Shown here piece after piece: positions 19,735 through 41,305 of a DNA stretch of 64,000 bases. This DNA comes from a candidate division FCPU426 bacterium (GTDB taxonomy: Bacteria > Oederibacteriota > Muellerivitia > Muellerivitales > Muellerivitaceae), in contig CAVTWJ010000004.1 of assembly GCA_963738405.1 (NCBI GenBank), positions 13,499 through 77,498 on the forward strand, read 5' to 3'. Position 1 is the first letter of the stretch. The number at the start of each line of letters is the position of its first letter. The notes below the pieces were generated by a model. The model searched no databases. It saw only the letters and a program-made list of their open reading frames with translations, and was not told the origin of the DNA. Made by a program: the position numbers and the translations under genes.

Positions 19735-19941
19735 ATGTTCATCATCCGCTTGGACGAAAAAGAATCGAAACGCATCCATGCCGCCGTCCAATCGGGAAGG
19801 GAGGTTTCATTTTTGCGCTCGGATTCTGACAGCACCACCTACCACACCTTTTCCACACCTACTACGCCTTGGTCGGAATCCGAACGGAAGGATGAAATTC
19901 CCTATGTGGAGGCCTTTAAGGCCTTGAAGGAGAAAAGGTGA
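19735..19941 (+). CDS. Hypothetical 68-aa protein encoded between murD and ftsW
   Basis: Strong SD AAAGGAGAAAG 6 nt before the ATG; its stop overlaps the ftsW GTG start (translational coupling); no recognisable domain. Confidence 0.4.
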   Translation: MFIIRLDEKESKRIHAAVQSGREVSFLRSDSDSTTYHTFSTPTTPWSESERKDEIPYVEAFKALKEKR

Positions 19942-21089: not shown

Positions 21090-21126
21090 GGCGCTTGGAC
21101 GAAAGAAAAAGGGAATCGCTTTGAAA

Positions 21127-23621: not shown

Positions 23622-23624
23622 GGG

Positions 23625-24620: not shown

Positions 24621-24769
24621 GCCGGATTCCCGGCCTCGTCGGAAAACCCTTCAAGTTGATAAGGAAGTTGAAGGGATATTCGGCTGAATGAGGATTTTAG
24701 GGAAGTTGAGAAGCACAACGCCAACTCCCGCTTTAAGTGCGGGGAACTTGTTGGAACGGAGAAAAAGAG

Positions 24770-25723
24770 ATGAAAGTTGGAGTTCTATACGGGGGCTGGA
24801 GCCCTGAAAAAAAGGTATCCCTGATGTCGGGGAAAAACGTGTTGGAAGGCCTTCGTGAGGCCGGAATTCAGGCTGTGGGCCTGGAATTAAGCTCGAAAGA
24901 TAAAAATCCAACCGTCCTTCGCCGGAGAATCCTGGCCTCAAGAGCGGACCTGCTTTTTATCGCCTTGCACGGCGGGTTTGGAGAGGACGGAACCCTGCAG
25001 GCCCTCCTGGACCAATGGAAGGTGCCTTACACGGGGTCGGGAGCCCTGGCCTGCGGATTGGCCATGCATAAGGGCTGTTCCAAACTGGTGTTTGAGGCGC
25101 AGGAGATTCCCACCGCGCCCTGGACGGCCTTTCATAAATCTTCCGAGCCTTCGAAGCGGCTAAAAGAAATTCGGATGCCTTTTCCTTTGGTGGTGAAGCC
25201 AGCCGACGTGGGCTCGGCCCTGGGGGTCACGATTGTAAGAAATAAAACCGCCCTCTCCCAAGCCCTCCAGACGGCCTTCAAGTACAGCTCCTGGGTACTG
25301 GTGGAAAAGTTCATCGCCGGGGTGGAAGTGACCGTGACGATTTTGGGCAAGAAGGCCCTGCCGGTGGTTGAGATACTGCCGGTGAACGAGTTTTACGACT
25401 ATGACGCCAAGTACACACCGGGCCATTCCACCCATGTGGTGCCGGCCCGGATTACCCCGGCTCAAACCCGGAAGGTCCAGGCCTACGCCCTGAAGGCGGG
25501 AGAAGCCATGGGCTGCCAGGATTACTACCGGGTCGATTTCATCATCCCCAAGAAGGGGGAGCCCCAGCTATTGGAAGTGAACACCGTTCCTGGAATGACC
25601 GCCACCAGTTTGGTGCCGGACGCGGCGAAAGCCGCCGGAATCACCTTTCCTAAGCTGTTGCGCAGGCTTTCCGAGATGGCGTTGAAAAAAAGGCCCCAAG
25701 GGGCCATGGCGAAGGTGGGGTAA
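24770..25723 (+). CDS. ddl: D-alanine--D-alanine ligase
   Basis: MKVGVLYGG N-terminus and ATP-grasp fold with the EVNTVPGMT motif; GGAGAAAAAGAG SD. Confidence 0.9.
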   Translation: MKVGVLYGGWSPEKKVSLMSGKNVLEGLREAGIQAVGLELSSKDKNPTVLRRRILASRADLLFIALHGGFGEDGTLQALLDQWKVPYTGSGALACGLAMHKGCSKLVFEAQEIPTAPWTAFHKSSEPSKRLKEIRMPFPLVVKPADVGSALGVTIVRNKTALSQALQTAFKYSSWVLVEKFIAGVEVTVTILGKKALPVVEILPVNEFYDYDAKYTPGHSTHVVPARITPAQTRKVQAYALKAGEAMGCQDYYRVDFIIPKKGEPQLLEVNTVPGMTATSLVPDAAKAAGITFPKLLRRLSEMALKKRPQGAMAKVG

Positions 25724-26769
25724 TGCATTATCGCGGGACCCAGGTATCAGGCGGAAGAAACGTAAAGGATTCATCAAGGGCCCAAAGGTCCCCGGCGAAT
25801 CGCTCTGCGCTCCCTCGGTCCCGAACCTACGGTTTGAGGCTGCCGAAGAGGGAGGAAACGTCCAAGAGTTTCTTGACCTTCTTTAAGAAGGAAGAGGATT
25901 CCAGGCCTTCGGGCAGGGCCTCCTCTTCGGGAAACCGGGAGTCGGCCGCGGCTTACGCTTTTTACCGGCCCGGCGCCGATCCGGAAACGGGGAAGAGGGA
26001 GCTTTTAAAACAAAAAGCTTGGACCTTCCCCGTGCCGGGGGTGAAGGGAGTCCTGAAGGGAGCGGCGCTCTTGGCGATGATCGGCCTAGCGGCCTGGGGT
26101 AAAAACCAGGTGTTGGGGCTTTTGCAGGACGCCTCGGGTTTCAAACTGGCCAAGGTGACGGTGGAGGGCAACCGCTTTCTGCGCGAGGAAGACCTGCTGA
26201 AGGCGGCGGCTCTGCCGCAGGGCGCGAACATGTTCAAGCTGGACCTGGCGGGAGCGGCCGGGCGAGTGGAAAAGCTGGACTGGGTGGAGAAGGCCTTCCT
26301 GGAAAGGCGCCTTCCCCAAACGGTCCTGATCTCGGTGAGGGAGCGAAAGATCGTGGCCCTGTTGGACAGCGGGACGCTTTACGGCGTCACGGGCGATGGA
26401 CGGGTGCTCTCGGCCAACGAGGAACTGGCCAAGATGGATTTGCCCCTCCTTTCGGGGGCGGCGGTGGCGCCCGAGGCGGTGGGGACGACTTTGATGGCCT
26501 CGGCCTTGGAGCCGGGATTAAGTTTTTTAGACTTTGCGGTGAGGGAAAAGGCTGGCAGGGCCCAGGACATATCGGAAATCAACCTTTCCGATTCCCAGGC
26601 CTTGAAAGTGACCTTTATTGACGGGGTCACGGCGACTTTTAATCCGCCGGTCACGGCGGGCGAATTACGGAGGCTGGACCTGGTACGCGGGGATTTGGCG
26701 CGCAAGGGACTCAGGGCGGGAACGATGGATTTCCGCTTCAAAGATACGGTGCTGGTCAAGGTGATGTGA
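25723..26769 (+). CDS. ftsQ: Cell division protein FtsQ/DivIB with an unusually long basic N-terminal extension
   Basis: TM (AALLAMIGLAAW) then POTRA (FKLAKVTVEGNRFLREEDLLKAA) and the FtsQ beta domain; ~110-aa R/S-rich cytoplasmic extension if the ATG overlapping the ddl stop is used. Confidence 0.75.
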   Translation: MHYRGTQVSGGRNVKDSSRAQRSPANRSALPRSRTYGLRLPKREETSKSFLTFFKKEEDSRPSGRASSSGNRESAAAYAFYRPGADPETGKRELLKQKAWTFPVPGVKGVLKGAALLAMIGLAAWGKNQVLGLLQDASGFKLAKVTVEGNRFLREEDLLKAAALPQGANMFKLDLAGAAGRVEKLDWVEKAFLERRLPQTVLISVRERKIVALLDSGTLYGVTGDGRVLSANEELAKMDLPLLSGAAVAPEAVGTTLMASALEPGLSFLDFAVREKAGRAQDISEINLSDSQALKVTFIDGVTATFNPPVTAGELRRLDLVRGDLARKGLRAGTMDFRFKDTVLVKVM

Positions 26770-26876
26770 GAAGCCGGTTAGCCTTTTGCCGCCGCCCTTT
26801 AAGGGCTCGGCTTGAGGTCCGCGGCTGTGGGCCGAACGGCTAAAAGCTAACGGCTGAACTCAAGGAGGCGAGGAAG

Positions 26877-28130
26877 ATGGCGAAGGAAATCAAGCAGGAC
26901 ATCGTGGTGGGGCTGGATCTGGGGACAACCAAGGTCTGCACCATTATCGGCGAGCAGGATGAGGAGGGGCAGGTCCACATCATCGGCGTGGGCACGACCC
27001 CTTCCACGGGATTGAAGAAGGGGTCGGTGGTGAATATCGAGCAGACCATCGCCTCCATCAAGAAATCCGTGGCGGACGCCGAGCGCATGGCGGGGGTGGA
27101 AGTGGGAGCGGCCTTCGCGGGCGTAGCCGGGGGCCACATCAAGGGCCTCAACAGCCGGGGCGTCATCGCCGTGGCCCGCAAGGATAAGGAAATCAGCGAG
27201 GACGACCGGGAGCGTGTCATTGAGGCGGCCCAGGCCATCGCCATCCCCATGGACCGGGAAATCATCCACGTGATCCCGCAGGAATACATGGTGGACGACC
27301 AGGACGGCATCAAGAATCCCGTCGGCATGTCAGGGGTGAGGCTGGAAGCGGAGGTCCACGTGGTAACGGGAGCGGTCACCAGCGTACAAAACATCGTCCG
27401 GAGCGTGGAGCGGGCGGGTCTGCAGGTGGCGGACATTATTCTTCAGCCCCTGGCTTCGGCGGAAGCCATCCTCTCGGCGGATGAGAAGGAATTGGGGGTG
27501 GTGCTGGTCGATATCGGGGGAGGAACCACCGACATCGCGGTCTTCATCAACGGGGCCCTGTGGCACACGGGCATCATCACCCTGGGCGGCCAGCTGGTCA
27601 CCAGCGACGTGGCGGTGGGTTTAAGGACACCCAATACGGAAGCCGAAGCTATCAAGCTCCAGTACGGTTGCGCTTATACCGCTATGGTGAAGGAAGAAGA
27701 GGAGATCACGGTTCCTGGGGTAGGAGGACGGGCGGACCGGCGCATGCCCCGCCGGGTGCTTTCCGAGATCATCGAGGCCCGCATGGAGGAAATTTTCGAG
27801 TTGGTGGCCGCGGAGCTGAAAAAGCACGGGTTCGAGGACCGCATCCCGGCGGGAGCGGTGATTACCGGGGGTTCGGCTTTGATGGAAGGAACCGCTGAGT
27901 TGGCGGAGAAGATTCTTCAGCTTCCGGTGCGCATCGGGTCCCCCAAGAGGGTCGGGGGGCTGACGGATGTGGTTTCCAATCCCAGCTATTCCACGGCGGT
28001 GGGGCTGGTGTTGATGGGGTTCCAAACGTTCCACAAGAGCGGAACCAAGAAGGGGCAGGGTTTTTCGGGCGAGAACGGGATGAAGAGCATCCTGGACCGG
28101 ATGAAAAAGTGGTTTGGGGATTCTCTTTGA
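26877..28130 (+). CDS. ftsA: Cell division protein FtsA
   Basis: Actin-fold motifs VVGLDLGTTKV, DIGGGTTD; C-terminal amphipathic helix. Confidence 0.95.
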   Translation: MAKEIKQDIVVGLDLGTTKVCTIIGEQDEEGQVHIIGVGTTPSTGLKKGSVVNIEQTIASIKKSVADAERMAGVEVGAAFAGVAGGHIKGLNSRGVIAVARKDKEISEDDRERVIEAAQAIAIPMDREIIHVIPQEYMVDDQDGIKNPVGMSGVRLEAEVHVVTGAVTSVQNIVRSVERAGLQVADIILQPLASAEAILSADEKELGVVLVDIGGGTTDIAVFINGALWHTGIITLGGQLVTSDVAVGLRTPNTEAEAIKLQYGCAYTAMVKEEEEITVPGVGGRADRRMPRRVLSEIIEARMEEIFELVAAELKKHGFEDRIPAGAVITGGSALMEGTAELAEKILQLPVRIGSPKRVGGLTDVVSNPSYSTAVGLVLMGFQTFHKSGTKKGQGFSGENGMKSILDRMKKWFGDSL

Positions 28131-28247
28131 TGCCTTTTCAGTATGAGAAGTGAGATGTGCAGGGTTGTGTAAAAGAAGCAAGCAGTTCAATGTTGGAGAA
28201 GAGTCCAGGGTGGACTGCCATTCGCAGCAAAATTGAGGGGGATTAAG

Positions 28248-29414
28248 ATGATAGAGTTCGCGGAAGATGATGTGACGCAGTATCTGGCTCACTTGAAGGT
28301 TATCGGAGTGGGCGGCGGCGGATGCAACGCCGTCAATAAAATGATGGAAGCGGGTGTGGAGGGCGTGGAATGCATCGCCGCCAATACCGACTACAAGTCT
28401 CTTCGCCGAAGCAAGGCGGGGAAAATTATCCAGCTGGGCAAGACCCTGACCAAGGGTTTGGGTTCGGGCGGAAACCCCACGATCGGCAAGGAAGCGGCCA
28501 TGGAATCCACCGACGAGATCCAGAAAACCCTGGAAGGGGCGGATATGGTGGTGGTCGCCGCCGGGATGGGCGGGGGCACGGGCACCGGCGCAGCGCCGGT
28601 GGTGGCTGAAATCGCCAAGAAATTGGGGATTCTGACCGTCGCCGTCGTCAGCCGTCCGTTCGAGCACGAGGGTCCGGTCCGCAAGGCCCAGGCCGAGGAC
28701 GGGCTTCGGGCCATGCTGCCCCATGTGGACGCCATCGTGGTGATCCCCAATGAGCGCATCAACCTGGTTTGCGAGCAGGATGTGGACCTGATGAGCGCCT
28801 TCGCCAAGGTGGACGAGGTGCTGGTGCAGGCCATCCAGGGCATCTCGGTGATTATCCATTCCGAGGGCGTGATCAACCGCGACTTCGCCGACGTGAAGCG
28901 CATCCTCACCGCCAAGGGAAAGGTGCTGATGGGTATGGGCGCCGCCACCGGCGAGGATAGGGCCTTGAAGGCGGTCCAAAAGGCCGTTCACAGTCCCCTT
29001 CTAGAGGACGTGGATATCGCGGGCGCCAGCGCGGTGCTGGTATTGGTTACCGCGGGGGCCAATTTCAGCCTGAACGAATTCAACCAGATCAACGGGTTTC
29101 TACAAAAGGCCGCAAGGCCGGGCGCGGAAATCATTCCAGGGATCGTGCGCGACGAGAACCTGAAGGACGGCCTCAGGGTCACCATCATCGCCACCGGTTT
29201 TGAGGCCGCCAAGGAAGACGCGGCCCTGGAGACGGTTTTGAACCTGGGCGAATTTTTGACCCCGGAATTCAAGACCGCCAAGGGAGCCACCGCTGCCTCC
29301 CACGCGGCGGAGGACCAGGAACCCGAAACGGAATTCAAGACGGCCGACGGCAAGTACGAGATTCCGGCCTACTTGAGGCGCCGTTTGGCGGGAAAGCCGT
29401 TCCATAACAATTAA
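28248..29414 (+). CDS. ftsZ: Cell division GTPase FtsZ
   Basis: Tubulin signature GGGTGTG, VIGVGGGGCNAV; GAGGGGG SD 6 nt before ATG 28248; conserved C-terminal DIPAYLRR peptide. Confidence 0.95.
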   Translation: MIEFAEDDVTQYLAHLKVIGVGGGGCNAVNKMMEAGVEGVECIAANTDYKSLRRSKAGKIIQLGKTLTKGLGSGGNPTIGKEAAMESTDEIQKTLEGADMVVVAAGMGGGTGTGAAPVVAEIAKKLGILTVAVVSRPFEHEGPVRKAQAEDGLRAMLPHVDAIVVIPNERINLVCEQDVDLMSAFAKVDEVLVQAIQGISVIIHSEGVINRDFADVKRILTAKGKVLMGMGAATGEDRALKAVQKAVHSPLLEDVDIAGASAVLVLVTAGANFSLNEFNQINGFLQKAARPGAEIIPGIVRDENLKDGLRVTIIATGFEAAKEDAALETVLNLGEFLTPEFKTAKGATAASHAAEDQEPETEFKTADGKYEIPAYLRRRLAGKPFHNN

Positions 29415-33140: not shown

Positions 33141-33340
33141 ATTTCTGTTAAACCGACCCTCAAAACTGTTAAACAAGTTCCGAAAACTGTTAAACAACAC
33201 CAAAAAACTATTAAACTGCGCCAAAATTTCTGTTAAACAACCTCTAAAAACTGTTAAACTAGGCCTGATTTCTGTTAAACAGGCCTTTTTATTGGGTAAA
33301 CACCGTTCTTTTATCTGTTAAAATTTAATTTCTATTAAAC
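33141..33340. repeat. Iteron-like array: ~10 copies of CTGTTAAAC (within 21-nt units AAAACTGTTAAACAA...) at 21-22 bp phasing in an AT-rich intergenic region
   Basis: Copies at 33145, 33166, 33187, 33208(v), 33230, 33251, 33272, 33292(v), 33315, 33332; regular two-helical-turn spacing. Confidence 0.7.
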
Positions 33341-33362: not shown

Positions 33363-35003
33363 ATGGAGGATATATTGGAAAAAAGCAACCTTAAGTCCCT
33401 GGCATGGCTGGATAAACTGTCCGCCTTCGCCGCTGAACGGGAAAAGAACCCCGACATCCCGCATGCCGAGCTGGCCAAGGCTCTGGGCCACGATAAGGCC
33501 ATGGTGTCTTTTCTGAGGTCCCTCAACAGTTGTTTTGATCCCGCCGCCGTGGAAAGGGTCCGGCAGGCCGCCCAAGGGCCCCACCCCTTTACCCTTTCCT
33601 TTAATAGCGCCTTGGAACTGGCCAAGCTGAACGGCAAGGTCCCCGACCTGCCGGGGGCGTTTCAGGACGCCCTGGAAGTGGTCCTTGCCCGCCATCTGGC
33701 CAAAAGGCATATCAAGAACCTGGTGGATTGGATTGCCAGCGGCAAACCGGCCAAGGATTTTGACCCTAAAAAGATCAAGGGAAATAAGCAGGATTCCGAC
33801 GAACCCGAAACCGACGAGGATGAGGGTGATGAGGAAGAACCCAAAGAGCAAACGGAAGATAAAAAGCAAAAGAAAGGGAAGGGTATCAGAAAGGCCCTTA
33901 AACAGCTTCAAAAAGCAGGCGCTAAAGGCCTGTTTGTCGGCCTCAAATCCATGGCCGGTATGATCCACAGATACGTTCATGAAGCCGCCAAGACTACGGC
34001 GGGCTATTTTTGCCCCCTCCACTCACGTTCCAGCCGAAATCATGATTCCTCTACCAGGCCAAACCTCTTTAGGTTCCTGGGCCATTGGGGGCTCTACTGG
34101 TTTTGCGTCTTTTTTGCCTATAGCGGTATCGTCGGCCTCCTCAGTTACATCGGGCACTTTATCCCCTTCGTGGGCCCCTGGATCGACAGCGCCTGGGCGT
34201 TCCTGGTCCACCTGCTGATCCGCCTGCCCTTTTGGCTCTTGCGCCAGATATTTGCCAAGCCCTGGCTGGTTTTCATCCTTGGCGTGGCTTTGGTTTGGTG
34301 GATTCACAAGGAATTCAAGGCCGGGTTATTGGCCACCCTTGTCGTCGCCGCCCTGTTGGCGGCGGGATGGATTTTTAGGGGAGTATGGGGGCCCTATCTG
34401 TCATCGATTGTTTCAATTTCATCACCGAAGACCGTGGAAGTACCCGTCTCCACAAAGACCTCACAACCAGCCGTCCCAGCGGTTTCGGCGATCATTTCAA
34501 AGATCGAGCCGAAGCTTACTGCAAAAAAGCCTAAAAAGCCCCTGTCTCCCGTAGCCTTGGCAAAGGGAGATAACTCGGGGGTCTTAGTTATTCCACCCGA
34601 GTCCCAGCCCAGGGTTCAGCAAGAATCGTTGTTCGTAAATGGCTTCATTGGTGATCTTTTCGGGCCCAGCTACCACGACCTTCAGGGTTGGATGGGGAAT
34701 CTGCAAAGCGAAATCACGCCAGGCTATTGGGACCAGTTTGTTTACGAAAATTACCCGCCCGCCAAGATGCAGGAAATCCAAGACAAGAAATATTTGGTTT
34801 TCTTCAAACTCTCAGATCCCGTGAAATGCGTGAGGGCGGACGTGTTATTGGACGAGTTTCAGGTGGAAGGGGTGGTGACCACCAAAAGCGACCTGCATTA
34901 TCAGGGGGAGGTGGTTTCCACCGTGCCCGTGACCGTAATTGTGGATGTGCGCCAGGGCCTGAAGGGCCTGGAAGTTTGCAAGGTTGATAGAGTCCGACCA
35001 TGA
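33363..35003 (+). CDS. Hypothetical 546-aa protein: N-terminal HTH-like domain, acidic/basic linker, 4-TM core, C-terminal soluble domain
   Basis: N-terminal NPDIPHAELAKALGHDKAMVSFLRSL resembles an HTH; DEPETDEDEGDEEEPKE and KKQKKGKG tracts; hydrophobic segments 230-340. Confidence 0.5.
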   Translation: MEDILEKSNLKSLAWLDKLSAFAAEREKNPDIPHAELAKALGHDKAMVSFLRSLNSCFDPAAVERVRQAAQGPHPFTLSFNSALELAKLNGKVPDLPGAFQDALEVVLARHLAKRHIKNLVDWIASGKPAKDFDPKKIKGNKQDSDEPETDEDEGDEEEPKEQTEDKKQKKGKGIRKALKQLQKAGAKGLFVGLKSMAGMIHRYVHEAAKTTAGYFCPLHSRSSRNHDSSTRPNLFRFLGHWGLYWFCVFFAYSGIVGLLSYIGHFIPFVGPWIDSAWAFLVHLLIRLPFWLLRQIFAKPWLVFILGVALVWWIHKEFKAGLLATLVVAALLAAGWIFRGVWGPYLSSIVSISSPKTVEVPVSTKTSQPAVPAVSAIISKIEPKLTAKKPKKPLSPVALAKGDNSGVLVIPPESQPRVQQESLFVNGFIGDLFGPSYHDLQGWMGNLQSEITPGYWDQFVYENYPPAKMQEIQDKKYLVFFKLSDPVKCVRADVLLDEFQVEGVVTTKSDLHYQGEVVSTVPVTVIVDVRQGLKGLEVCKVDRVRP

Positions 35004-35078: not shown

Positions 35079-35108
35079 TTGTCCACGATGGGGAGCCATC
35101 GTGGACAA
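35079..35108. repeat. Perfect palindromic element TTGTCCACGATGG-GGAG-CCATCGTGGACAA (13-bp arms)
   Basis: Member of the dispersed hairpin family; located upstream of the AraC gene; followed by an AAAGAAAAA tail. Confidence 0.7.
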
Positions 35109-35216
35109 AGAAAAACGCTTGTAATACTGTTTTGATACGGTTGGCCTTGTCCTGTTTTTATGACAGAAATTGAGTCGGTGGCCAACTCTTTAGATTAATT
35201 ATTATGAGGCTGATGG

Positions 35217-36089
35217 ATGACCGAAGCACCTTTGGCGGAAAAAATTGAATTCGTCCGGTCCGAGGACCTTGCGGGCATTGAAATATTGCGGGCCGACAAT
35301 ACCAAGCATTGTTTCCGGTGGTTTCACCAGACCTACTCCGTCAATACGCCTTTGAATTACCAAGCCCCCGATTACCACCAATTCAAGTATCGCGGGAAAA
35401 GCTTCACGGGGTTTCCGGGAGAGACCATGATGCTCGAACCCGGGGAAATCCACAGCGCCACTTACTTATCGAACCCGGTTACTTTTCGGGTCATCATGAT
35501 TCCACCCGTAATCCTCGAACAATGCGCCTTGGAATTGGACGTCCGGGGTTCCAGGCCCCATTTAAAAACAGCGCTCTCGGACGATTCGGTTCTCTTTAAG
35601 GCCTTCCGGAATCTTCACGCCAGCATCGAAACGGATTGCACGGCCTTGGAACGTCAGTCCCGTTTTGTCTATTGCGTCAGGCATCTATTGAGGGCGGCGG
35701 CGGAAATAATTCCGAAACCCCCTCCCGCCGAAAGAAGTTTAAAGAAGGTTAAGAAGGCGGTGGAATTCTTGAAAACCCATTGGGCCGAAAATATTACACT
35801 CGACCAACTCGTCAAGGTCGTGGGTCTTAACCGATTTTATCTCTCCCGGGTTTTCACCCGGGAAATGGGAATTCCTCCGCATGCCTTCCAGATTCAATTG
35901 CGGATTGCCCGGGTCCGGGAATTCTTGAAAATGGGCGTTCCTATTTCCGAAATCGCCCTCGCTGCGGGTTTTACCGACCAATCCCATATGGACCGCCATT
36001 TCAAGAAAATTACGGGGACAACGCCCGCCCGTTATGCCGGACTAAGATTGAAGACAAAGACCAGGGCAATAACGTCCTATAGTTTGTAA
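35217..36089 (+). CDS. AraC/XylS-family transcriptional regulator
   Basis: C-terminal dual HTH: LDQLVKVVGLNRFYLSRVFTREMG ... IALAAGFTDQSHMDRHFKKITGTTPARY. Confidence 0.85.
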   Translation: MTEAPLAEKIEFVRSEDLAGIEILRADNTKHCFRWFHQTYSVNTPLNYQAPDYHQFKYRGKSFTGFPGETMMLEPGEIHSATYLSNPVTFRVIMIPPVILEQCALELDVRGSRPHLKTALSDDSVLFKAFRNLHASIETDCTALERQSRFVYCVRHLLRAAAEIIPKPPPAERSLKKVKKAVEFLKTHWAENITLDQLVKVVGLNRFYLSRVFTREMGIPPHAFQIQLRIARVREFLKMGVPISEIALAAGFTDQSHMDRHFKKITGTTPARYAGLRLKTKTRAITSYSL

Positions 36090-36151
36090 ATCCTTCTCCC
36101 TAGACTTCCAATGTCTCCAGTTAAAACGGAATTTTTGAGTGAGGGGTTATC

Positions 36152-38887
36152 ATGAAGAATCAGTCCTTGTTGATTACGATCGGGCTTTTGTTTTTTGCAG
36201 CTTGCTTCTATATTTCCTGCGGAAGCGGCAGTCCCACGGCGCCGGCCCCCACCCCCGTTCCCGTGCCCACCGATACCCCTTGCGGTTATCCGGGCAATAC
36301 CTGCACAGTGACCTCCACCTTTACCTCGACCGATACGCCTACCTCGACCCATACGGCCACGACCACTTATTCGCCCACCCAAACCAATACCCCGACCCAA
36401 ACCTTCACCTGGACGGTCACGAAAACCCCGACGGACACCTTTACGTCAACTTCCACCTTTACGATAACGGATACACCGACAATAACGGATACACCCACCC
36501 ACACCCACACCTACACCTTCACCTTCAGCCCCACGGAAACCAGGACTTCGACGGAAACCTTCACACCGTCCGATACCCCTACGATTACGGATACCCCCAC
36601 CGTATCCAACACGCCCACCGTGACCAATACCCTGACCAGTACTACCACGCCCACTGTCACGAACACGGTGACCTGCACGAACACCCCGACCAACACTTCC
36701 CAATATTCCTCTACCTATACACCCACGATCACTCGCACGGCCACGATCACCTTAAGTCCCACCAATACCTCCACGTCCACGCCAGTGGGTATTTTCGTCA
36801 GCGGTTCGGTGACCTACACGGGGGCGGGAACCGTCTCGTCGGCCAACCCCATCGTGATTATCGCCTCCAATCCCCTGGCAACGAACGGGATGCCCGAAAC
36901 GGTTATCACCACAAACGGAGGCTCTTATTCTTTCGCGGTGACCGGTGGGAATAATTCCATCGTCTGCTGGTACTCGAACAAAGCGCCGCTCAATTGCCTG
37001 ACGAATGGCGGGGCCCCAGAGCAGGGGAATTACATGGGCTGGTACAACGGGGGCGCCCAGCCAGTCACGATCAATATCACTTCCAGTACTTCCAACATCA
37101 ACGTCACGATTGGTTCGGGCAGCGCCCTCCAGGGGGTTGCCGGGCCGGTGAGTTACCTGGGATTGAACAGCGTCGATAACAACCACCCGGTGATCGTGGA
37201 ACTCTTCAAGGACAGCGGCTACAGCACCCTGGACCAGTCGATGGGCCCGGGCGAGGAAGAGTTCAGCTGTGCCCATTCGACTTACAACTTCGCCTCCAGC
37301 AACAACGGGTCGACCGAATACCTGCTGGCTTTCCAGGACAACGCGGGTACGGGCCGCGTGAACGCCGCCAGTCAGGTTCCCGGCGGGGACCCGATGGTTT
37401 TGGCCGGATCCGTGGTGATTGGTACCTCAACGACCAAGAATATCGCTTTTCCCACTTCCACGCCGACCATGACGGTCACCTCCACCCCGATCCCCGCCCC
37501 CTACGTCTTCAAGGGAACGATCCATTACACCGGCGCAAAAAGCACTGCGGGCCAATACCTATTGATGATGGCCACCACCTGCATCAGCTGCGGCGGCAAC
37601 GATATGGTCACTTGGTCCACCCCGGGAACCTCGAGCGCGGTTTCCTATACCCTCAACCTGCCCTCCACCGGCAGTTACGTGGTCATGGGCATGTTGTCCA
37701 ATGATCCGGTCATGAACGGGCCGCCGCCGGTGGGCGCGCCTTACGGATTCTACGGAACAGGCACTGTTTGTTTGGGAGGAACACCCACGACCCTGGCCGT
37801 GAACGGGCCTACCACGCAGACTGCCAACATGTCTTTTGGGGACAGCTGCGAACTGAATGGTGTTTCGGGGACCATCAGCTACACCGGCGCGGGCTCAGTG
37901 GGCAGTAATGGTAACTCGCTGTATGTGACGGCTTATACGGATTCAAGCTACTCGACTCAGATTTCGGGACCCGGAAACAACTCCGTGACGGTGAATGGGG
38001 GCACTTATAACGTGATCAACACCGGCGGCGCCCCCACTACCGTCTATCTCCAGGCTTATTACGGGTCCGACAATAACAACGCCCCGGCAACCTGTGACGC
38101 GGTGACCAATTTAGGCCCGGTGGCCTTCAACACCACCACGACCACCAAAAATATCACGCTTTCCGACGCCTTCCTCTACAACTGCACGAACACCCTCTCG
38201 GGCACCGTCAATTGGACAGGGGCCGGCACGGTCAACACGTCCGATCCCATCGTCGTGCATGCCGTCCTTTGCCCCAGCGGGGATTGCAACAACCAAACGA
38301 ACTACTCTTGCGCAGTGACCCAAAACGGCGGGAACTATTTCGTGGGTTTTCCCGCAGCGGGATCCGTTTACGTTTCTGAGGAATACGTGGCCACGGGAAG
38401 GATTTGGAACAATTGGGATTACAACATCGGAAGCTACGCCGAAAATGCCGATGGAACTTGTTCCATCGAGACCGGCAATAATGGAAACCCCGTCATCGTC
38501 AGCGGAGCCGCCGTTTCAAACCTGAGTTTCGGTTCCAGTTGTGGACAACTCCAGGGTTATACCGGAACCGTGACCTATAACGGTTCCAAGGGCGCCCCGA
38601 CTTGCAATGGAAACCCCGGACGCCAAATTTGGGTCTCGGCCACGTATGGAAACAGTAAAAACGAGTTTTCCTATTGGGATACTAGCGTATGCAATAACGG
38701 TGACACCTATAAGATCATCTATGGAACAACGAGCGCGAGTCTATATTTGAGGGTCTGGTTTGATGACCAGGGTACGGGTGACCACCAGCCGCAGACCGGC
38801 GAGTCTGGGACCGTAGTGGGTCCCTACGTTACGAGCACCAACCCAACCTCTATCAACATTTCCTTTGATGATTCCCAAACCTGGTAA
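36152..38887 (+). CDS. Large repetitive surface lipoprotein: lipobox, ~180-aa Thr/Pro-rich tract, then ~5 repeated ~130-aa domains (G-x-[VI]-x-[YW]-T-G-A-G)
   Basis: Signal peptide plus lipobox YISC; TPT/TDT low-complexity region; recurring GSVTYTGAG, GTISYTGAG, GTVNWTGAG, GTVTYNGSKG units; terminator follows. Confidence 0.7.
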   Translation: MKNQSLLITIGLLFFAACFYISCGSGSPTAPAPTPVPVPTDTPCGYPGNTCTVTSTFTSTDTPTSTHTATTTYSPTQTNTPTQTFTWTVTKTPTDTFTSTSTFTITDTPTITDTPTHTHTYTFTFSPTETRTSTETFTPSDTPTITDTPTVSNTPTVTNTLTSTTTPTVTNTVTCTNTPTNTSQYSSTYTPTITRTATITLSPTNTSTSTPVGIFVSGSVTYTGAGTVSSANPIVIIASNPLATNGMPETVITTNGGSYSFAVTGGNNSIVCWYSNKAPLNCLTNGGAPEQGNYMGWYNGGAQPVTINITSSTSNINVTIGSGSALQGVAGPVSYLGLNSVDNNHPVIVELFKDSGYSTLDQSMGPGEEEFSCAHSTYNFASSNNGSTEYLLAFQDNAGTGRVNAASQVPGGDPMVLAGSVVIGTSTTKNIAFPTSTPTMTVTSTPIPAPYVFKGTIHYTGAKSTAGQYLLMMATTCISCGGNDMVTWSTPGTSSAVSYTLNLPSTGSYVVMGMLSNDPVMNGPPPVGAPYGFYGTGTVCLGGTPTTLAVNGPTTQTANMSFGDSCELNGVSGTISYTGAGSVGSNGNSLYVTAYTDSSYSTQISGPGNNSVTVNGGTYNVINTGGAPTTVYLQAYYGSDNNNAPATCDAVTNLGPVAFNTTTTTKNITLSDAFLYNCTNTLSGTVNWTGAGTVNTSDPIVVHAVLCPSGDCNNQTNYSCAVTQNGGNYFVGFPAAGSVYVSEEYVATGRIWNNWDYNIGSYAENADGTCSIETGNNGNPVIVSGAAVSNLSFGSSCGQLQGYTGTVTYNGSKGAPTCNGNPGRQIWVSATYGNSKNEFSYWDTSVCNNGDTYKIIYGTTSASLYLRVWFDDQGTGDHQPQTGESGTVVGPYVTSTNPTSINISFDDSQTW
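36270..36790 (+). repeat. Low-complexity ACC/ACG-rich coding repeat (Thr/Pro linker of the lipoprotein)
   Basis: Imperfect tandem acg-ccc-acc / acc-gat-acc units encoding TPT, TDT, TNT. Confidence 0.5.
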
Positions 38888-38902
38888 AAGCTTTTGGCAA
38901 AA

Positions 38903-38937
38903 AGGCCCGTCCCTTCATTGGGACGGGCCTTTTTTTA
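38903..38937 (+). terminator. Rho-independent terminator
   Basis: AGGCCCGTCCC-ttcatt-GGGACGGGCCT stem-loop followed by TTTTTTT. Confidence 0.7.
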
Positions 38938-39192
38938 TTTGGAGTGGGCGTCAAGGAACCAGTCGCCGGAAAATATCATGGTTGTATATAGGTGATATAC
39001 TGGCCGCATTGAAAAACCCGGCAGTTGAAACGGGATATTAACGGCAGGGCGTTATTGAACGGGATGGTTATCGATGGAACCTGAAGTCCAATAATAAAAA
39101 AACCGGGTCTGGTCCCACGCTCTCCAGCGTGGAACAGGGCTCAATTCACCGCAGAATTGAGCAGGGATTAACCATTATTAGTACGAGTTAGG

Positions 39193-39220
39193 TGTTCACG
39201 ATGGGGACCCGTCGTGGACA
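39193..39220. repeat. Palindromic element copy (TTCACGATGG-GGAC-CCGTCGTGGACA, 2 mismatches)
   Basis: 41 nt upstream of the first AT-rich small ORF. Confidence 0.6.
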
Positions 39221-39260
39221 GGTAACATGGATTGGGAAACATTGAAAGAGGATGTGAAGT

Positions 39261-39665
39261 TTGGCAAAAAATGAAAAAATCCAAATATTATTATTCCCTT
39301 TTCTGTTCCTTGGGTTAATGATTATTTTTCCATATATAAGTTTTGGATTTAATAAATGGCTTGGGAGAAATTTAGGGAATTTTTTATTTTTTCTACCGCA
39401 ATATGTATTTCCATATGACGGGTATTTCAGAAGTGGCCCGTTTGATGAAACTGCCCACTTAAGTCTTCATCCGCTTGGTTTGCCAGGATGGATTGCATCG
39501 TTGATTCATTGGACGATTGTCATTTTTATTTATTATTGGCTTACTCGAAAATTATCCTTTGGAAAATCACTTCTAATGTTTTGCTTTTTGGCTATTTCAT
39601 CATTAGTAATTGTCTATTTTTCATTGGGGGTTTTTGGATGGAATTTCAGCATTGATGGACCATAA
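39261..39665 (+). CDS. Small hypothetical membrane protein (AT-rich island gene 1)
   Basis: 134 aa, ~33% GC, 3-4 TM segments; AAAGAGGA SD region. Confidence 0.5.
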   Translation: MAKNEKIQILLFPFLFLGLMIIFPYISFGFNKWLGRNLGNFLFFLPQYVFPYDGYFRSGPFDETAHLSLHPLGLPGWIASLIHWTIVIFIYYWLTRKLSFGKSLLMFCFLAISSLVIVYFSLGVFGWNFSIDGP

Positions 39666-39678
39666 AAAAGGAATTCTC

Positions 39679-39708
39679 TTGTCCACGACGGGGACCCGTC
39701 GTGGACAA
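39679..39708. repeat. Perfect palindromic element TTGTCCACGACGG-GGAC-CCGTCGTGGACAA
   Basis: 13-bp arms, 4-nt loop, followed by AGAAAAAAGG; 43 nt upstream of the next ORF. Confidence 0.7.
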
Positions 39709-39750
39709 AGAAAAAAGGCGTAAAGTGTTATCGGCAATAGGAGATCGAAA

Positions 39751-40086
39751 ATGGATCGCAAAATAATCGCCGAAGTTATATTCGCATTTTTAGGAGTATG
39801 GATGATCGCCCTCCCTTCATTCTTTTTAAAGTTCCTCGCAAAGGGGGCACAGTTTAATTATGAAAATTTAAAATCAAATTTAGATAGGATTAAAAGGGAA
39901 GGGCCGGCAAATCTGAACGAAAAATTAGCGACGAAATTTGGTCCCAACATCTTTCAAAAAATCTCGATGAATAAGGATGTTTATAAACCCCCGACGGAAA
40001 CACAAAAGTGGTTAATGAGATCATTGGGGATATTATTCGTTTGCATATCTCTTGGCGTTTTATTCAATCTGATTGGGGTTAGATGA
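39751..40086 (+). CDS. Small hypothetical membrane protein (AT-rich island gene 2)
   Basis: 111 aa, N- and C-terminal TM helices, AT-rich; GGAGATCG SD-like sequence. Confidence 0.5.
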   Translation: MDRKIIAEVIFAFLGVWMIALPSFFLKFLAKGAQFNYENLKSNLDRIKREGPANLNEKLATKFGPNIFQKISMNKDVYKPPTETQKWLMRSLGILFVCISLGVLFNLIGVR

Positions 40087-40149
40087 AACATTGTTAATTT
40101 TTCTCTCCAGTTTCTTAACCGATTTGAGGACCGTTTGGTTGAAGCTTGT

Positions 40150-40178
40150 TTGTCCACGACGGGGACCCATCGTGGACA
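40150..40178. repeat. Palindromic element copy TTGTCCACGACGG-GGAC-CCATCGTGGACAG
   Basis: One mismatch; followed by AAAAATAAAG; 58 nt upstream of the next ORF. Confidence 0.65.
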
Positions 40179-40235
40179 GAAAAATAAAGTGTAAGTATTT
40201 CATTTGGACGGTATTACGGGAAAAAGGATTAGAAT

Positions 40236-40769
40236 TTGGAAACTAAAACGGAAATAAATCCAAACGAATTTAGAACACTTTACCGTCCCCGTTTTGCTGA
40301 TTGGCTCATTGCTTGTCTTTTTTTCTTAACTTTTGGTTTGGGACTTCCATCTATGTTGGTTGAAAAAAGTTTGGATGTTTGGGGAAAGAACATTTTATCT
40401 TTGGATTCGATTGAAAGGTTTTTTGGGTGCGTTGTAGTAATCGGAATGGAAATAATTTTATTGAAAGAATGTTTAAAATCTTGGCTTTCTGAAGTTAGTG
40501 TTAATTCTATGAGACTAAAATTAAAAATTCTTTCTTTTGAAAAAATAATTGAATGGAAAACTCTTCATTCTATTTCTCTTTCGCCCAATAGCTGGGGAAC
40601 AGTTGATTTGTATTTGTTTTTTCCAAATAAAAAGAAAATTAGGTTTTGGTCGGCCTTTGGTCCTGCAAGTAGATTTATCTACCAAGGTATAAAAGAATTC
40701 AGACCTGATCTGATTGATGAACTGAAAAAGCAGGGGAAAATGCATGAGTATAAAGGTGTATTTATTTAA
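40236..40769 (+). CDS. Hypothetical membrane protein (AT-rich island gene 3)
   Basis: 177 aa, TTG start with AAAAAGGA SD; two N-terminal TM helices; AT-rich. Confidence 0.5.
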   Translation: METKTEINPNEFRTLYRPRFADWLIACLFFLTFGLGLPSMLVEKSLDVWGKNILSLDSIERFFGCVVVIGMEIILLKECLKSWLSEVSVNSMRLKLKILSFEKIIEWKTLHSISLSPNSWGTVDLYLFFPNKKKIRFWSAFGPASRFIYQGIKEFRPDLIDELKKQGKMHEYKGVFI

Positions 40770-40783
40770 ACCAGATACTTAAC

Positions 40784-40812
40784 CTGTCCACGACGGGGAC
40801 CCGTCGTGGACA
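40784..40812. repeat. Perfect palindromic element CTGTCCACGACGG-GGAC-CCGTCGTGGACAG, followed by a second small IR (ACAGTCAGT..ACTGACTGT)
   Basis: Same family; lies directly 3' of island gene 3. Confidence 0.7.
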
Positions 40813-40920
40813 GTCAGTACCACTGACTGTCTTATTCGAAAATGTTTCCCCGGAACTTTCTAGCTTTCTCAAAAAATTTTAGGGGAATGATAAACCTGTA
40901 CTTACCTGGTAAAGTTACCC

Positions 40921-40950
40921 CCTGTCCGCAAAAGGAACCCGTTGTGAACA
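40921..40950. repeat. Degenerate copy of the palindromic element (CTGTCCGCAAAAGG-AAC-CCGTTGTGAACAA) with an AAAGAAAA tail
   Basis: 32 nt upstream of ORF 40982. Confidence 0.35.
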
Positions 40951-40981
40951 AAGAAAATGCCGATAAGGAGCCTTCCAAACC

Positions 40982-41305
40982 ATGACTTCGCGCCCGCCCC
41001 TTTTGATTGTGCTCTGCTTCCTAGGACTCGTTGGTTGTTTTCTGAACATGATGATGGTTTTATCCCCGCCTGTGCGCGAGATCGCGCCCTGGTTTCCAGG
41101 CTACCTATCGGCAGCGACGGCCCTAGCGGCCGCCTGCCTGGGGGGACTGTGGTTTCTCAAACGTTGGGCCCTATGGGGATATACCTTTTATTTTCTGGCC
41201 CAGCAATCCGTCTTTCTTTTGCTTCATCGCTGGGATGCCCATGCCTTGATCCTTCCCTTGGCCGTGACGGCTACGGCCTGGGCCTATTCAAAGAATATGA
41301 AGTGA
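40982..41305 (+). CDS. Small hypothetical 3-TM membrane protein
   Basis: 107 aa; hydrophobic helices (LLIVLCFLGLVGCF, AATALAAACLGGLWFL, LILPLAVTATAWAY); AAGGAG SD; preferred over the overlapping frame 40957..41313. Confidence 0.45.
   Translation: MTSRPPLLIVLCFLGLVGCFLNMMMVLSPPVREIAPWFPGYLSAATALAAACLGGLWFLKRWALWGYTFYFLAQQSVFLLLHRWDAHALILPLAVTATAWAYSKNMK

Follow-up and report, generated by a model that had tools for sequence, protein, structure and literature searches.

Integrons are the only well-established system in which single-gene cassettes are stockpiled and shuffled, and in every known integron the recombinase belongs to a single clade of tyrosine recombinases and works on attC sites folded from single-stranded DNA. 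An attC site is an imperfect repeat of 57-141 nt with R and L boxes, including a GTTRRRY box, and extrahelical bases; crossover takes place between G and TT of the R' box, and the recombinase gene lies upstream of the array, divergent from it and accompanied by the Pc promoter. The cassettes are co-oriented, mostly single-gene, compositionally foreign, mostly of unknown function and rich in toxin-antitoxin genes. The same cassette may be found in several arrays or genomes, and orphan arrays (CALINs) are known. Integron sites are parasitised by group II introns and by elements of the IS110/IS1111 family (PMC3001079, PMC11187229).

The hix and gix sites of Hin and Gin, and res site I of the resolvases, are 26-30 bp long, with two inverted arms of about 12 bp around a central asymmetric dinucleotide, where breakage occurs and which sets polarity. 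These enzymes have a small C-terminal HTH, act on a single fixed segment that they invert or resolve, and depend on accessory sites or on Fis with an enhancer. The CcrAB recombinases of staphylococcal SCC islands combine a resolvase catalytic domain with a PF07508 Recombinase domain and act on elements of 20-60 kb that have different attachment sequences at one conserved gene. In composite SCC islands, elements lie in tandem, each with a short repeated site, and some lack a recombinase and use one in trans. Ccr proteins and phage integrases are 450-700 aa long, with four domains including a zinc ribbon and a coiled coil, and distinguish attP from attB.

Two further systems have short repeated sites. 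The pdif modules of Acinetobacter plasmids have 28-bp core sites in many contexts, including toxin-antitoxin modules; they depend on the host tyrosine recombinases XerC/XerD, and their dif-like sites, of 11-6-11 layout, alternate in orientation. Plasmids of this kind are the subject of 10.1101/2022.01.12.475240. REP elements are short extragenic palindromes, repeated just past genes, targeted by IS110-family elements, specific to a species, and associated with RAYT (Y1) transposases whose genes are flanked by inverted copies. Searches of the literature turned up neither a serine-recombinase cassette array nor the palindrome analysed below.

A palindrome-delimited array in an FCPU426 genome

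The stretch of DNA analysed here (the window, 64,000 nt from a bacterium of candidate division FCPU426) contains five copies of TTGTCCACGACGG-GGAC-CCGTCGTGGACAA, all in one orientation and alternating with three membrane-protein ORFs of 32-37% GC. Shuffled windows contained no matches to the 30-mer. An initial annotation of this DNA had described an AT-rich island in which palindromes alternate with small, low-GC membrane-protein genes, and this observation was confirmed in part. The GC content is 0.36-0.42 over positions 39001-41000 compared to about 0.55-0.60 in the surroundings, and each of the three ORFs encodes two or three strongly hydrophobic segments. The island had been thought to start at 38940, whereas the array runs from 35079 to 40813. 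A fourth gene, of 107 aa, had been counted as a possible member with its own palindrome, but the sequence concerned, at 40922, has 7-8 mismatches in 26 positions and lies inside the remnant of a recombinase pseudogene, and the ORF has a normal GC of 0.55 and is outside the array. Perfect arms of 13 bp had been attributed to every copy; one copy has them and the others carry mismatches.

The first site of the array, S1 (35079-35108, plus strand, as are all five; TTGTCCACGATGGGGAGCCATCGTGGACAA), has three mismatches, two of them compensatory, and folds in computation into a DNA hairpin of -15.7 kcal/mol (z = -8.7). It is found 77 nt past the stop codon of a conserved chromosomal gene (33363-35003, plus strand), the upstream limit of the array. 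The 546-aa product has membrane segments and, as judged by eye, an HTH/ParB-like N-terminus; a Pfam scan placed it in no family. A homolog of this gene in another FCPU426 genome (12868-14094 of the merged loci L069 and L019) is followed by the palindrome 91 nt past its stop codon and then by an array. S2 (39192-39221; GTGTTCACGATGGGGACCCGTCGTGGACAG) has two mismatches in its 26-nt core, S3 (39679-39708) is the perfect copy, a 13-4-13 palindrome that can equally be written 14-2-14 around a central GA (-17.8 kcal/mol), and S4 (40150-40179; TTGTCCACGACGGGGACCCATCGTGGACAG) has two mismatches. S5 (40784-40813), the terminal site, has two mismatches in the 30-mer and a perfect core, and its position is homologous to that of terminal sites adjoining recombinase genes at loci L092, L016, and L054.

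Between S1 and S2 is a multi-gene region of normal GC (35109-39191, plus strand), which we infer to be a cassette (A) from its flanking sites alone. It encodes an AraC-family regulator (35217-36089, plus strand; Pfam HTH_18/AraC) and a 911-aa Thr/Pro-rich lipoprotein-like protein (36152-38887, plus strand), followed by a canonical terminator (38899-38934) and a spacer of about 250 nt. The 887-aa product of the last cassette at L016 and the 911-aa protein are not orthologs, and their comparison gives no order of insertion.

Cassettes B, C, and D each hold one plus-strand ORF: 39261-39665 (134 aa, GC 0.33, three hydrophobic segments), 39751-40086 (111 aa, GC 0.37, two TM segments), and 40236-40769 (177 aa, GC 0.32, two TM segments). 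Pfam, NCBIfam, and PADLOC provided no function for them, save a sub-threshold DUF6199 match for the 111-aa protein. Homologs are few: three for the 134-aa protein (57-64% identity) in 5.8 billion clusters searched, three distant ones for the 177-aa protein in 1.84 billion representative proteins, and one for the 111-aa protein (59% identity). The last is encoded two genes downstream of an RHS toxin gene, a single weak hint in favor of the earlier suggestion that the island collects orphan immunity genes. Homologs of the small ORFs at L113 and L114 lack a flanking palindrome. Exact-protein look-ups of window genes matched only short Logan contigs broken at the palindromes, indicating that the repeats cause short-k-mer assemblies to break at these sites.

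The site core begins 15, 65, and 16 nt after the stop codons of ORFs B, C, and D, and the distances from the preceding core to their start codons are 41, 44, and 58 nt, so the tighter tie is to the upstream gene. Scans of the window for tRNAs found none, and a promoter and terminator scan gave no enrichment over shuffles and listed none of the palindromes.

Array anatomy across FCPU426

The palindrome was then compared among 102 DNA stretches bearing it (loci), almost all from FCPU426 metagenome-assembled genomes and representing about 21 genomes, in which 340 sites with at most five mismatches were found in 733 kb. Nearly all of the intergenic copies (169 of 175) follow a co-oriented gene, at a median of 19 nt past its stop codon. 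Consecutive sites share orientation in 198 cases and differ in 3, the median spacing is 891 bp, the units are about 0.5-1.6 kb long, and the largest arrays have 13-14 sites. Genes preceding a site have a median GC of 0.463 versus 0.516 for other genes. The comparison argues that the palindrome is the 3' end of each cassette, like attC. The initial annotation had it precede the genes, perhaps as a 5'-UTR structure or operator; that reading was rejected, as orientation follows the upstream gene (169:6) and stem pair 9/18 does not covary. Nor does the palindrome have the marks of a structured RNA, with no covariation at that pair and no Rfam match in the window.

The proposal that this is a gene-cassette array is supported by the co-orientation and low GC of the arrays and by inter-site units that recur in unrelated contexts with breakpoints in the palindrome. 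In twenty families of inter-site units the members are 74-100% identical, yet their flanks, taken as 300 nt outside each site, are unrelated. At 80-100% identity, and in unrelated surroundings, units recur in the same genome as well as in different ones. Within one genome, L026 and L099 share 1219 nt at 100% identity on contigs of 0.95 and 2.05 Mb, and L027, L036, and L074 provide a further case; between species-level genomes, L009 and L054 share a unit at 99% and L024 and L027 at 100%. Comparison of the loci indicates that the units are mobile, and it likewise underlies the array anatomy, the dyad breakpoint, and the recombinase linkage described here. Clean one-cassette insertions or deletions were sought between the loci and none were found; nor did excised circles or empty sites turn up.

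Two findings would have spoken for something more ordinary, namely an abundant genome-wide REP-type element or an island conserved in synteny among relatives. The palindrome is present in tens of copies per genome, grouped in arrays, and cassette content differs between relatives. The locus shares with REP/RAYT systems a short, repeated, extragenic palindrome just past genes that IS110-family elements target. It differs in having one site per gene, a sequence kept across a phylum, and breakpoints of shared units inside the palindrome, and a REP/RAYT identity was rejected because no Y1 gene is flanked by inverted copies and the tens of copies lie in co-oriented arrays.

A classical integron was rejected as well. 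Co-oriented, shared cassettes with boundaries at the site resemble an integron in function only: the sites are near-perfect palindromes of 26-30 nt with one conserved sequence, a 4-nt centre, and no GTTRRRY box, and IntI is absent. Pfam scans of 29 window ORFs (the array, its neighbors, and other large ORFs outside the dcw cluster) detected no IntI-type tyrosine recombinase. The earlier statements that the elements are not attC sites and that the window has no integrase therefore hold, the window keeping no more than the remnant of a serine recombinase.

Structure of the site and point of crossover

The sites have a 12-2-12 layout, GTCCACGACGGG-GA-CCCGTCGTGGAC, with inverted arms of 12-14 bp (TTGTCCACGAYGGG). 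In an alignment of 321 sites, the two dyad bases are nearly invariant (G13 in 316, A14 in 315) and positions 9, 15, and 18-21 are variable. On the 3' side only A at +27 and A or G at +28 are conserved, so the A-rich tail noted earlier is reduced to these two positions with no general A-run. The sites do not resemble intrinsic terminators, being followed by A, A/G, and unconserved sequence.

Among 18 pairs of sites that have only their upstream flank in common, there are 31 differences at positions 15-26 and 5 at positions 1-14; in the comparison of L009 with L054, identity stops exactly after ...GGGGA, at position 14, though informative junctions of this kind are few. The breakpoint falls at the dyad of the palindrome, between positions 14 and 15, and 12-2-12 is the layout of a serine-recombinase crossover site: arms of ~12 bp and a central 2-bp overlap that is identical between partners. 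In length, arms, asymmetric central dinucleotide, and breakpoint the site is similar to hix, gix, and res site I. In contrast to the single fixed segment of those systems, there are dozens of equivalent sites here. Crossover at the dyad also differs from that in the R' box of attC.

A serine recombinase at the end of the arrays

Genes for a serine recombinase of 275-281 aa were found at the downstream ends of arrays in relatives, with a Resolvase domain (PF00239, 2e-22), a Recombinase domain (PF07508, 1.5e-10), and an intact YVRVSSKEQ...DRLYRN motif. The catalytic domain matches PDB 3guv and the TP901-1 integrase. The resolvase-type catalytic domain with its catalytic serine motif is therefore present in the relatives; the window keeps a C-terminal remnant only. 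The intact gene converges on the terminal palindrome in all six cases examined (L092, L009, L088, L105, L108, and L103), and its stop codon is 10-170 nt from that site. As in integrons, the recombinase is at one end of the array, but it is downstream and converges on the cassettes rather than upstream and divergent.

Decayed recombinase remnants with the same geometry were found at L054, L016, and L062 and in the window, and a weaker remnant of 21 residues was found in L045, about 1.4 kb from the nearest site. The remnants are thus in the same place in four of five cases. In the window, about 42 codons (~125 nt) of the C-terminus remain at 40838-40963 on the minus strand, convergent with the cassettes, and the rest is missing. 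This remnant was detected by tblastn with the L092 recombinase (E = 0.003, residues 227-272), and at the DNA level it shares 77-83% identity with the equivalent parts of L016 and L092. A small hairpin, AGTCAGTAccaCTGACTG (40812-40829, plus strand), lies between S5 and the recombinase stop codon, and the same motif, TCAGTAGTACTGA, is found directly 3' of the recombinase stop in L092 and L108.

The protein lacks the zinc-ribbon and coiled-coil domains of known large serine recombinases. All 19 close clusters are 275-283 aa long, and dN/dS values of 0.04-0.16 indicate that this short form is under selection; homologs at 59% identity or less carry PF13408. It does not fit the class of large serine recombinases, with their greater length, four domains, and separate attP and attB, as a single site consensus is used here. 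It differs from Hin, Gin, and the resolvases in having the Recombinase domain of the large serine recombinases in place of a small HTH, and it shares its two domains with CcrAB, whose 20-60 kb elements contrast with the small units and like sites of these arrays. More distant short homologs at L111 and L112 (53-55% identity) are without such palindromes or arrays, so the proposal made below is kept to FCPU426. Within the blocks of 8-16 kb, most arrays show no recombinase, and the window copy is dead. The L103 gene is at the edge of an ICE-like region, and the enzyme may be no more than the integrase by which a small integrative element attaches at the palindrome.

Proposed mechanism

The region from 35079 to 40813 is probably an integron-analogous chromosomal array of mobile cassettes that was driven by a serine recombinase and has been orphaned in this window. 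Decay of the recombinase to its short remnant would leave the window array in the condition of an attC cluster without an integrase. The wider proposition, that FCPU426 has a new gene-capture platform converging on integron logic with non-homologous parts, and that the window holds an orphaned array of it, is held more tentatively, as somewhat favored on balance.

In this mechanism, a dimer of the ~275-aa recombinase, with its catalytic and Recombinase DNA-binding domains, would bind each site and two sites would synapse. All four strands would be cut at the central GA, after which rotation would exchange the half-sites and the ends would be rejoined. Serine recombinases make such cuts in concert, with 2-nt 3' overhangs and 5'-phosphoserine links. 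Two direct sites recombining in this way would free a cassette as a circle with one site, and the reverse reaction could insert the circle into any site in a single orientation, because GA differs from TC. Over many rounds this would give arrays of uniform orientation and move cassettes around inside a genome and from one genome to another, while rearranging the window array would take a recombinase encoded elsewhere in the genome. This recombinase as the catalyst, the circular intermediate, and the chemistry of cleavage are what we infer from the comparison. The platform would consist of the ~275-aa recombinase, a 12-2-12 duplex site closing each cassette on its 3' side, and arrays that reach 14 units or more, with exchange of units between species.

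If this is correct, cassette capture is a convergent solution and extends to a poorly known phylum of soil and peat, whose islands of orphan genes it would account for. Genome engineering might also profit from so small a recombinase and its 26-30 bp site. The palindrome serves as a simple annotation marker for such arrays.

The best surviving alternative, considered unlikely, is that the sites are REP-like hairpins handled as single strands by an HUH enzyme of the Y1/RAYT type, which would nick the loop between GGGGA and the next base and move the segment between hairpins, with the recombinase as a bystander. Stable DNA hairpins (-16 to -18 kcal/mol, z about -8) can form from either strand, and a junction after position 14 fits a nick in the 4-nt hairpin loop equally well. 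Genes encoding Y1_Tnp and DnaA_C domains (RAYT-like) were found in array regions of three genomes, and the introns and IS110 elements described below act as they would at structured single-stranded targets. However, the RAYT-like genes vary in where they lie with respect to the palindromes and have no inverted flanking copies, and the palindromes are not dispersed by the hundred in alternating orientation. The arms also vary independently at pair 9/18 (CG 131, CA 69, TG 31, TA 14). The 28% of sites with a C-A mismatch there match exactly what the marginal frequencies predict, so this position is under no selection for pairing. By comparison, the geometry of the serine recombinase at array ends is constant for the six intact genes and for all but one of the five remnants.

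It is quite unlikely that the palindrome is instead the core site of a tyrosine recombinase encoded elsewhere, in the manner of a Xer-like dif module or lox, and that the serine recombinase belongs to a separate element targeting it. Inverted arms around an asymmetric centre would also suit lox, FRT, and dif sites, the pdif modules show that Xer proteins of the host are able to mobilise small units, and Phage_integrase genes occur in L103 and L108, at 3-5 kb from the serine recombinase, with another in L043. Yet a phmmer search with two queries against six-frame ORFs of the window and 114 loci (about 0.8 Mb) yielded only three tyrosine recombinases; no site adjoins them, and the window has none. 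Position 15, which would be inside any spacer of 6-8 bp, is not C in 12% of the 321 sites, and the invariance of the two dyad bases suits a reaction in which partners need to match over a 2-bp overlap only. To our knowledge, the site has no similarity to dif consensus sequences, and these chromosomal sites are direct repeats (198:3) rather than alternating as in the plasmid modules.

That the palindrome is mainly an expression element (a terminator-like or mRNA-stabilising 3' hairpin, or an operator) spread with mobile genes rather than causing their movement is very improbable, for its place and orientation after stop codons, its strong hairpin, and introns that insert past it as class C introns do at terminators are offset by the missing U-tract and the use of canonical terminators elsewhere (38899-38934), by near-identical sequence across species-level genomes and independent paired positions that favor protein recognition of duplex half-sites, and by breakpoints and recombinase linkage that it leaves without explanation. 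The palindrome may have a secondary role in transcript 3'-end formation.

Cargo, parasites, and a second array

The cassettes carry toxin-antitoxin genes (PIN, MazF, BrnA, and TacAT/GNAT), Imm53, GNATs, and mostly orphan genes, a content similar to that of chromosomal integrons. The commonest cassette family outside the window consists of large PT-rich proteins (16 members, 10 of which are followed by the palindrome). The Y1 genes, some of which are inside arrays, look like cargo themselves. Group II introns begin 3 nt after the hairpin, and both the introns and IS110 elements target the palindrome. Class C group II introns are known to insert after terminator hairpins (PMC3001079). The gathering of toxin-antitoxin cassettes, group II introns, and IS110 elements around repeated recombination sites offers a testable case.

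The window also has traces of a second, decayed array. A relic site at 5108-5133 (plus strand), 29 nt after the stop codon of the ORF at 4263-5078, has five mismatches and keeps the left arm and GGGGA. It is followed by a cassette (5151-5999, plus strand) encoding a TacA antitoxin (5151-5474) and a GNAT toxin (5484-5999; Pfam GNAT), which is 84-90% identical in DNA sequence to cassettes with an intact terminal palindrome in L083 and L037. On the other side of this cassette, 17 nt past the GNAT stop codon, is a relic left half-site, GTTCGCGACGGGGA (6017-6030, plus strand). Another relic left half-site, GTCCACGACGGGGG (1914-1927, plus strand), was found 26 nt past the stop codon of a methyltransferase gene (1138-1887).

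Palindromic sites and gene order in the window

When the window was scanned for the 30-mer TTGTCCACGACGGGGACCCGTCGTGGACAA with up to 3 mismatches, copies were found at 39679 (perfect), 40150, 40784, and 35079, and dinucleotide-preserving shuffles of the window contained zero matches. A repeat finder added another good copy at 39192, together with two poorer resemblances, at 5106 and 40922. Every copy in the window had the same orientation, as judged by the polarity of the asymmetric centre GGAC. Four of the good copies lie in a region of low GC content (0.36-0.42 across 39001-41000, compared with mostly 0.50-0.60 in the rest of the window) that contains three small ORFs: 39261-39665 (134 aa, GC 0.33), 39751-40086 (111 aa, GC 0.37), and 40236-40769 (177 aa, GC 0.32), each with 2-3 predicted hydrophobic segments. 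These results bear out the initial annotation of an AT-rich island of small membrane-protein genes accompanied by a repeated palindrome. A fourth ORF of 107 aa, which had been assigned to the same island, lies outside it and has a normal GC content (0.55), and the palindrome thought to precede it, at 40922, is also outside and has 7-8 mismatches in 26 positions.

The five good copies, designated S1 to S5, divide the region into an ordered array. At the head is a 546-aa gene (33363-35003, plus strand), followed by S1 (35079); in another genome a homolog of this gene likewise heads an array, and the distance from its stop codon to a site is 91 nt. Cassette A, from S1 to S2 (39192), encodes an AraC regulator and a 911-aa PT-rich protein, and the 134-aa, 111-aa, and 177-aa ORFs lie between S2 and S3 (39679), S3 and S4 (40150), and S4 and S5, respectively. 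S5 (40784-40813) is the terminal site and is followed by a small hairpin and the remnant of a recombinase gene. A second, decayed array was found at 1.1-6.3 kb of the window, with relic left half-sites at 1914-1927, 5108-5133, and 6017-6030, each 17-29 nt past a plus-strand gene. One of its units, a TacA/GNAT toxin-antitoxin cassette (5151-5999), has 84-90% identity to cassettes of the comparison loci L083 and L037 whose terminal sites are intact.

Distribution and anatomy of the arrays

A single scan of species-representative genomes identified the palindrome core in 102 stretches of DNA, almost all of them from metagenome-assembled genomes labelled candidate division FCPU426 and originating from peat, bog, and soil. 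The window was not among the 102 but has 82-90% DNA identity to some of them. At up to 5 mismatches there were 340 sites in 733 kb. There were tens of copies per genome and they were clustered, a distribution on which a genome-saturating REP element was rejected.

The gene context of the sites was computed from simple ORF calls. The upstream gene was co-oriented with the site at 169 of 175 intergenic sites, with a median of 19 nt from stop codon to site, so the palindrome, which had been described as an element preceding genes, is instead one that follows them. Downstream genes were also mostly co-oriented with the site (144:30), 198 of 201 consecutive site pairs had the same orientation, and the median spacing between sites was 891 bp. 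GC content was lower in genes with a site after them than in other genes (median 0.463 versus 0.516), and once adjacent blocks were merged there were arrays of 7-14 units consisting of gene and site. Two Logan contigs from the sample of the window, which are short-k-mer assemblies, break exactly at palindromes, L109 beginning at a site and L110 finishing at one; many public assemblies can thus be expected to contain such arrays in pieces.

Architecture of the site

The core is exactly 12-2-12, with GTCCACGACGGG and CCCGTCGTGGAC on either side of a central GA, and flanking T/A pairs widen it to 14-2-14; the dyad falls between G13 and A14. Across 321 non-identical sites, positions 10-14 (GGGGA) were nearly invariant and positions 9, 15, and 18-21 were variable. 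Each strand of the palindrome is able to fold stably. At the variable pair 9/18, the counts (CG 131, CA 69, TG 31, TA 14) equal the product of the marginal frequencies, indicating that base-pairing is not under selection there. This pattern suggests that two duplex half-sites are recognized, rather than that RNA or a single-stranded hairpin is required. Like the palindrome, crossover sites of serine recombinases, such as hix, gix, and site I of res, have inverted arms of 12 bases and an asymmetric central dinucleotide, and these enzymes cleave at the central 2 bp.

A variant of the site, with the platform-side arm GGYGTAGTRGAC, was also observed. In L103, a recombinase gene is directly followed by two inverted hybrid sites with 24 nt between them (10956-11031), each combining a cassette-type left arm with the variant right arm GGTGTARTGGAC. 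They mark the edge of an ICE-like region that is linked to a tRNA and contains a TraG-like gene and Phage_integrase, and they may represent an empty or mobile platform.

Mobility of the units and position of the breakpoint

Among 226 inter-site units there were 20 families that recurred across different loci. The recurring units were 74-100% identical, and the 300 nt beyond both bounding sites were unrelated. Within single genomes, L026 and L099 shared 1219 nt at 100% identity, a unit at 100% was common to L027, L036, and L074, and a two-unit block was common to L082 and L092; since the contigs that carry L026 and L099 are 0.95 and 2.05 Mb long, assembly chimeras are unlikely. Units were also shared across species-level genomes (L009 and L054, 99%; L024 and L027, 100%).

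In alignments of the junctions, identity covered the whole left arm together with GGGGA before being lost in the right arm. The 18 pairs that shared only the upstream flank differed 31 times within positions 15-26 and 5 times within positions 1-14, and the 12 non-intron pairs that shared only the downstream flank had few differences, mostly at positions 5-9. Thus the gene upstream of a site carries along its left arm and centre, and the downstream gene its right arm; the crossover falls in the interval from about position 10 to position 14. Cleavage at the central 2 bp, as in serine recombinases, predicts the observed junction between positions 14 and 15. Recurrence of units between unrelated flanks, with a breakpoint inside the palindrome, agrees with the earlier reading of the island as a cassette array. 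No excised circles or empty sites were seen, and a search for indels between loci was also negative.

A reading in which the palindrome is purely a regulatory 3' hairpin is unlikely, because there is no U-tract and the breakpoints would be left unexplained, though a secondary role of the hairpin at transcript 3' ends is possible.

A serine recombinase linked to the arrays

Clustering of all ORFs from the loci revealed a family of short recombinases, intact in L009, L092, and L088 and fragmentary in L054 and L016. The genes are convergent to the arrays, 10-36 nt separating their stop codons from the terminal site, the right arm of which is often degenerate. The proteins contain Resolvase (PF00239) and Recombinase (PF07508) domains and no zinc ribbon, and their catalytic region matches solved catalytic domains of the resolvase family and of TP901-1 integrase. 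The catalytic serine would be the one in VSS of the motif YVRVSSKEQ. A database search returned 19 close clusters (68-100% identity), all 275-283 aa in length; the group ranked after these, with identities of at most 59%, consisted of ordinary large serine recombinases with PF13408. Pairwise dN/dS ratios among six of the genes were 0.04-0.16, so the short form would be a functional gene and not a truncated pseudogene.

The same arrangement was found on all three additional contigs with close homologs: L105, in which the plus-strand recombinase gene is followed by minus-strand sites at 1420, 3733, and 4432; L108, with sites at 5523, 6320, 8967, 13692, 14367, and 14783; and L103, in which the two inverted hybrid sites adjoin ICE-like genes. 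A tblastn search of all 91 merged blocks identified 3 intact genes and 4 remnants, each of which converges on the array. The intact genes were all beside a terminal site, as were three of the remnants; the fourth remnant, in L045, was about 1.4 kb from the nearest site.

The window retains a trace of this gene. The small hairpin after S5 is the one that follows the recombinase stop codon in L092 and L108, the DNA beyond S5 is 77-83% identical to the 3' region of the recombinase gene of L016 and L092, and a minus-strand remnant aligns in tblastn with residues 227-272 of the recombinase (E = 0.003). No other part of the gene is present, and only about 170 nt separate S5 from the next gene. The initial annotation had suggested a search for a tyrosine recombinase or integrase nearby; the enzyme linked to the arrays in relatives is a serine recombinase, and in the window only this minus-strand remnant of it survives.

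Judged from comparative sequence evidence, this is probably an integron-like cassette array in which the linked short serine recombinase would recombine the sites, and the array in the window would be orphaned, its recombinase having been reduced to a remnant. A rival reading, in which an HUH/Y1 enzyme nicks the hairpin loop, would account for this junction equally, but those Y1 genes that are present resemble cargo. Action of a tyrosine recombinase in trans is likewise improbable: such genes are scarce (3 in about 0.8 Mb of the same DNA) and unlinked, none adjoining a site and none lying in the window, and position 15 of the site varies.

The array attributed here to the serine recombinase would work like an integron, with a site of the hix/res type. 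An integron proper was rejected on both IntI and attC, and the earlier statement that this is not a classical integron and that no integrase lies in the window holds. A canonical large serine recombinase element was rejected because the zinc-ribbon and coiled-coil domains are absent and attP and attB are not distinct, and neither REP/RAYT nor a dif module was accepted as the identity of the palindrome. We rate the array among the cassette platforms of site-specific recombinases; a more radical reading would make it a distinct class. Literature searches turned up no description of such a system or palindrome.

About 275 nt upstream of the recombinase start codon there is a non-coding stretch, roughly 250 nt long, that is conserved (L092 3556-3815, L009 2688-2965, L108 4302-4560). 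It has stops in every frame in L108 and no Rfam match, and its predicted consensus fold has 73 pairs, 17 with compensatory changes; one possibility is a novel structured RNA or leader connected with the recombinase.

Cargo and parasites of the sites

The three small ORFs of the window are real but rare. The 134-aa ORF had three homologs (57-64% identity), the 111-aa ORF a single one (59%), and the 177-aa ORF three distant ones among 1.84 billion representatives; none had a significant match in Pfam, NCBIfam, or PADLOC. Immunity genes are usually located downstream of RHS toxin genes, and in the region L114 1-6360 the homolog of the 111-aa protein comes second after the gene for a 3825-aa RHS-repeat toxin. 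That hints weakly at an immunity function of the 111-aa protein, and the earlier suggestion of immunity genes keeps that much. The GC content of the L114 homolog is 0.38, compared with 0.53 for the RHS gene.

Among 150 non-redundant cassette proteins, which represented 106 families in total, the most common Pfam families were PIN (6), GNAT (6), TPR (5), MazF (2), and BrnA (2), and there was one Imm53. Examples include VapC-type PIN, Gp49/HigB-like, and TacA/TacT proteins. This cargo spectrum is similar to that of sedentary chromosomal integrons (for context, 10.1101/2024.07.02.601686).

A group II intron, with RF02003 D1-D4, RF00029 domain V, and reverse transcriptase ORFs, recurs behind many of the palindromes (L033, L037, L038, L077, L081, L100, L011, L027, L059, L063, L084, and L086), and several genomes have more than one copy. 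In 19 cases it starts exactly 3 nt past position 26, co-oriented with the site. Both palindrome arms vary in intron-bearing pairs, so the whole site is the target of the intron rather than a crossover partner. An IS110-family transposase gene of the 358-aa type, with DEDD_Tnp_IS110 and Transposase_20 domains, was about 70 nt from a site in all three cases (L033 5803-6879; L046 5396-6472, which is 13396-14472 of merged L077+L046; and L065 1989-3065), suggesting that this insertion sequence targets the site. The introns and IS110 elements add a functional parallel with integrons, whose attC sites are known to be parasitised by group IIC-attC introns and by IS1111-attC elements (PMC3001079, PMC11187229).

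Other features of the array neighbourhood

The 911-aa protein of cassette A (36152-38887) has a lipoprotein-like N-terminus followed by a long Thr/Pro-rich repeat region, and no family match; in the other arrays, the cassette family met most often consists of PT-rich proteins resembling it. Upstream of the array is a complete division and cell-wall (dcw) cluster (10744-29414), recognized by Mur ligase repeat motifs and ORF sizes, which places the array in a chromosomal, core-genome neighbourhood. The 546-aa protein has no Pfam family, but by eye its N-terminus is HTH/ParB-like, and it has membrane segments. About nine iterons, (A/T)AAACTGTTAAACA, lie at 21-nt spacing upstream of its gene (33141-33302), and homologs in two other genomes have 9-18 iterons upstream at about the same spacing (merged L069+L019 14095-14560; L058 6250-6580), with sequences that differ from those of the window (AACCGGTTACCAAG; TTCCTATTGGCAT). 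It looks like a DNA-binding protein that co-evolves with its own centromere- or operator-like repeat array.
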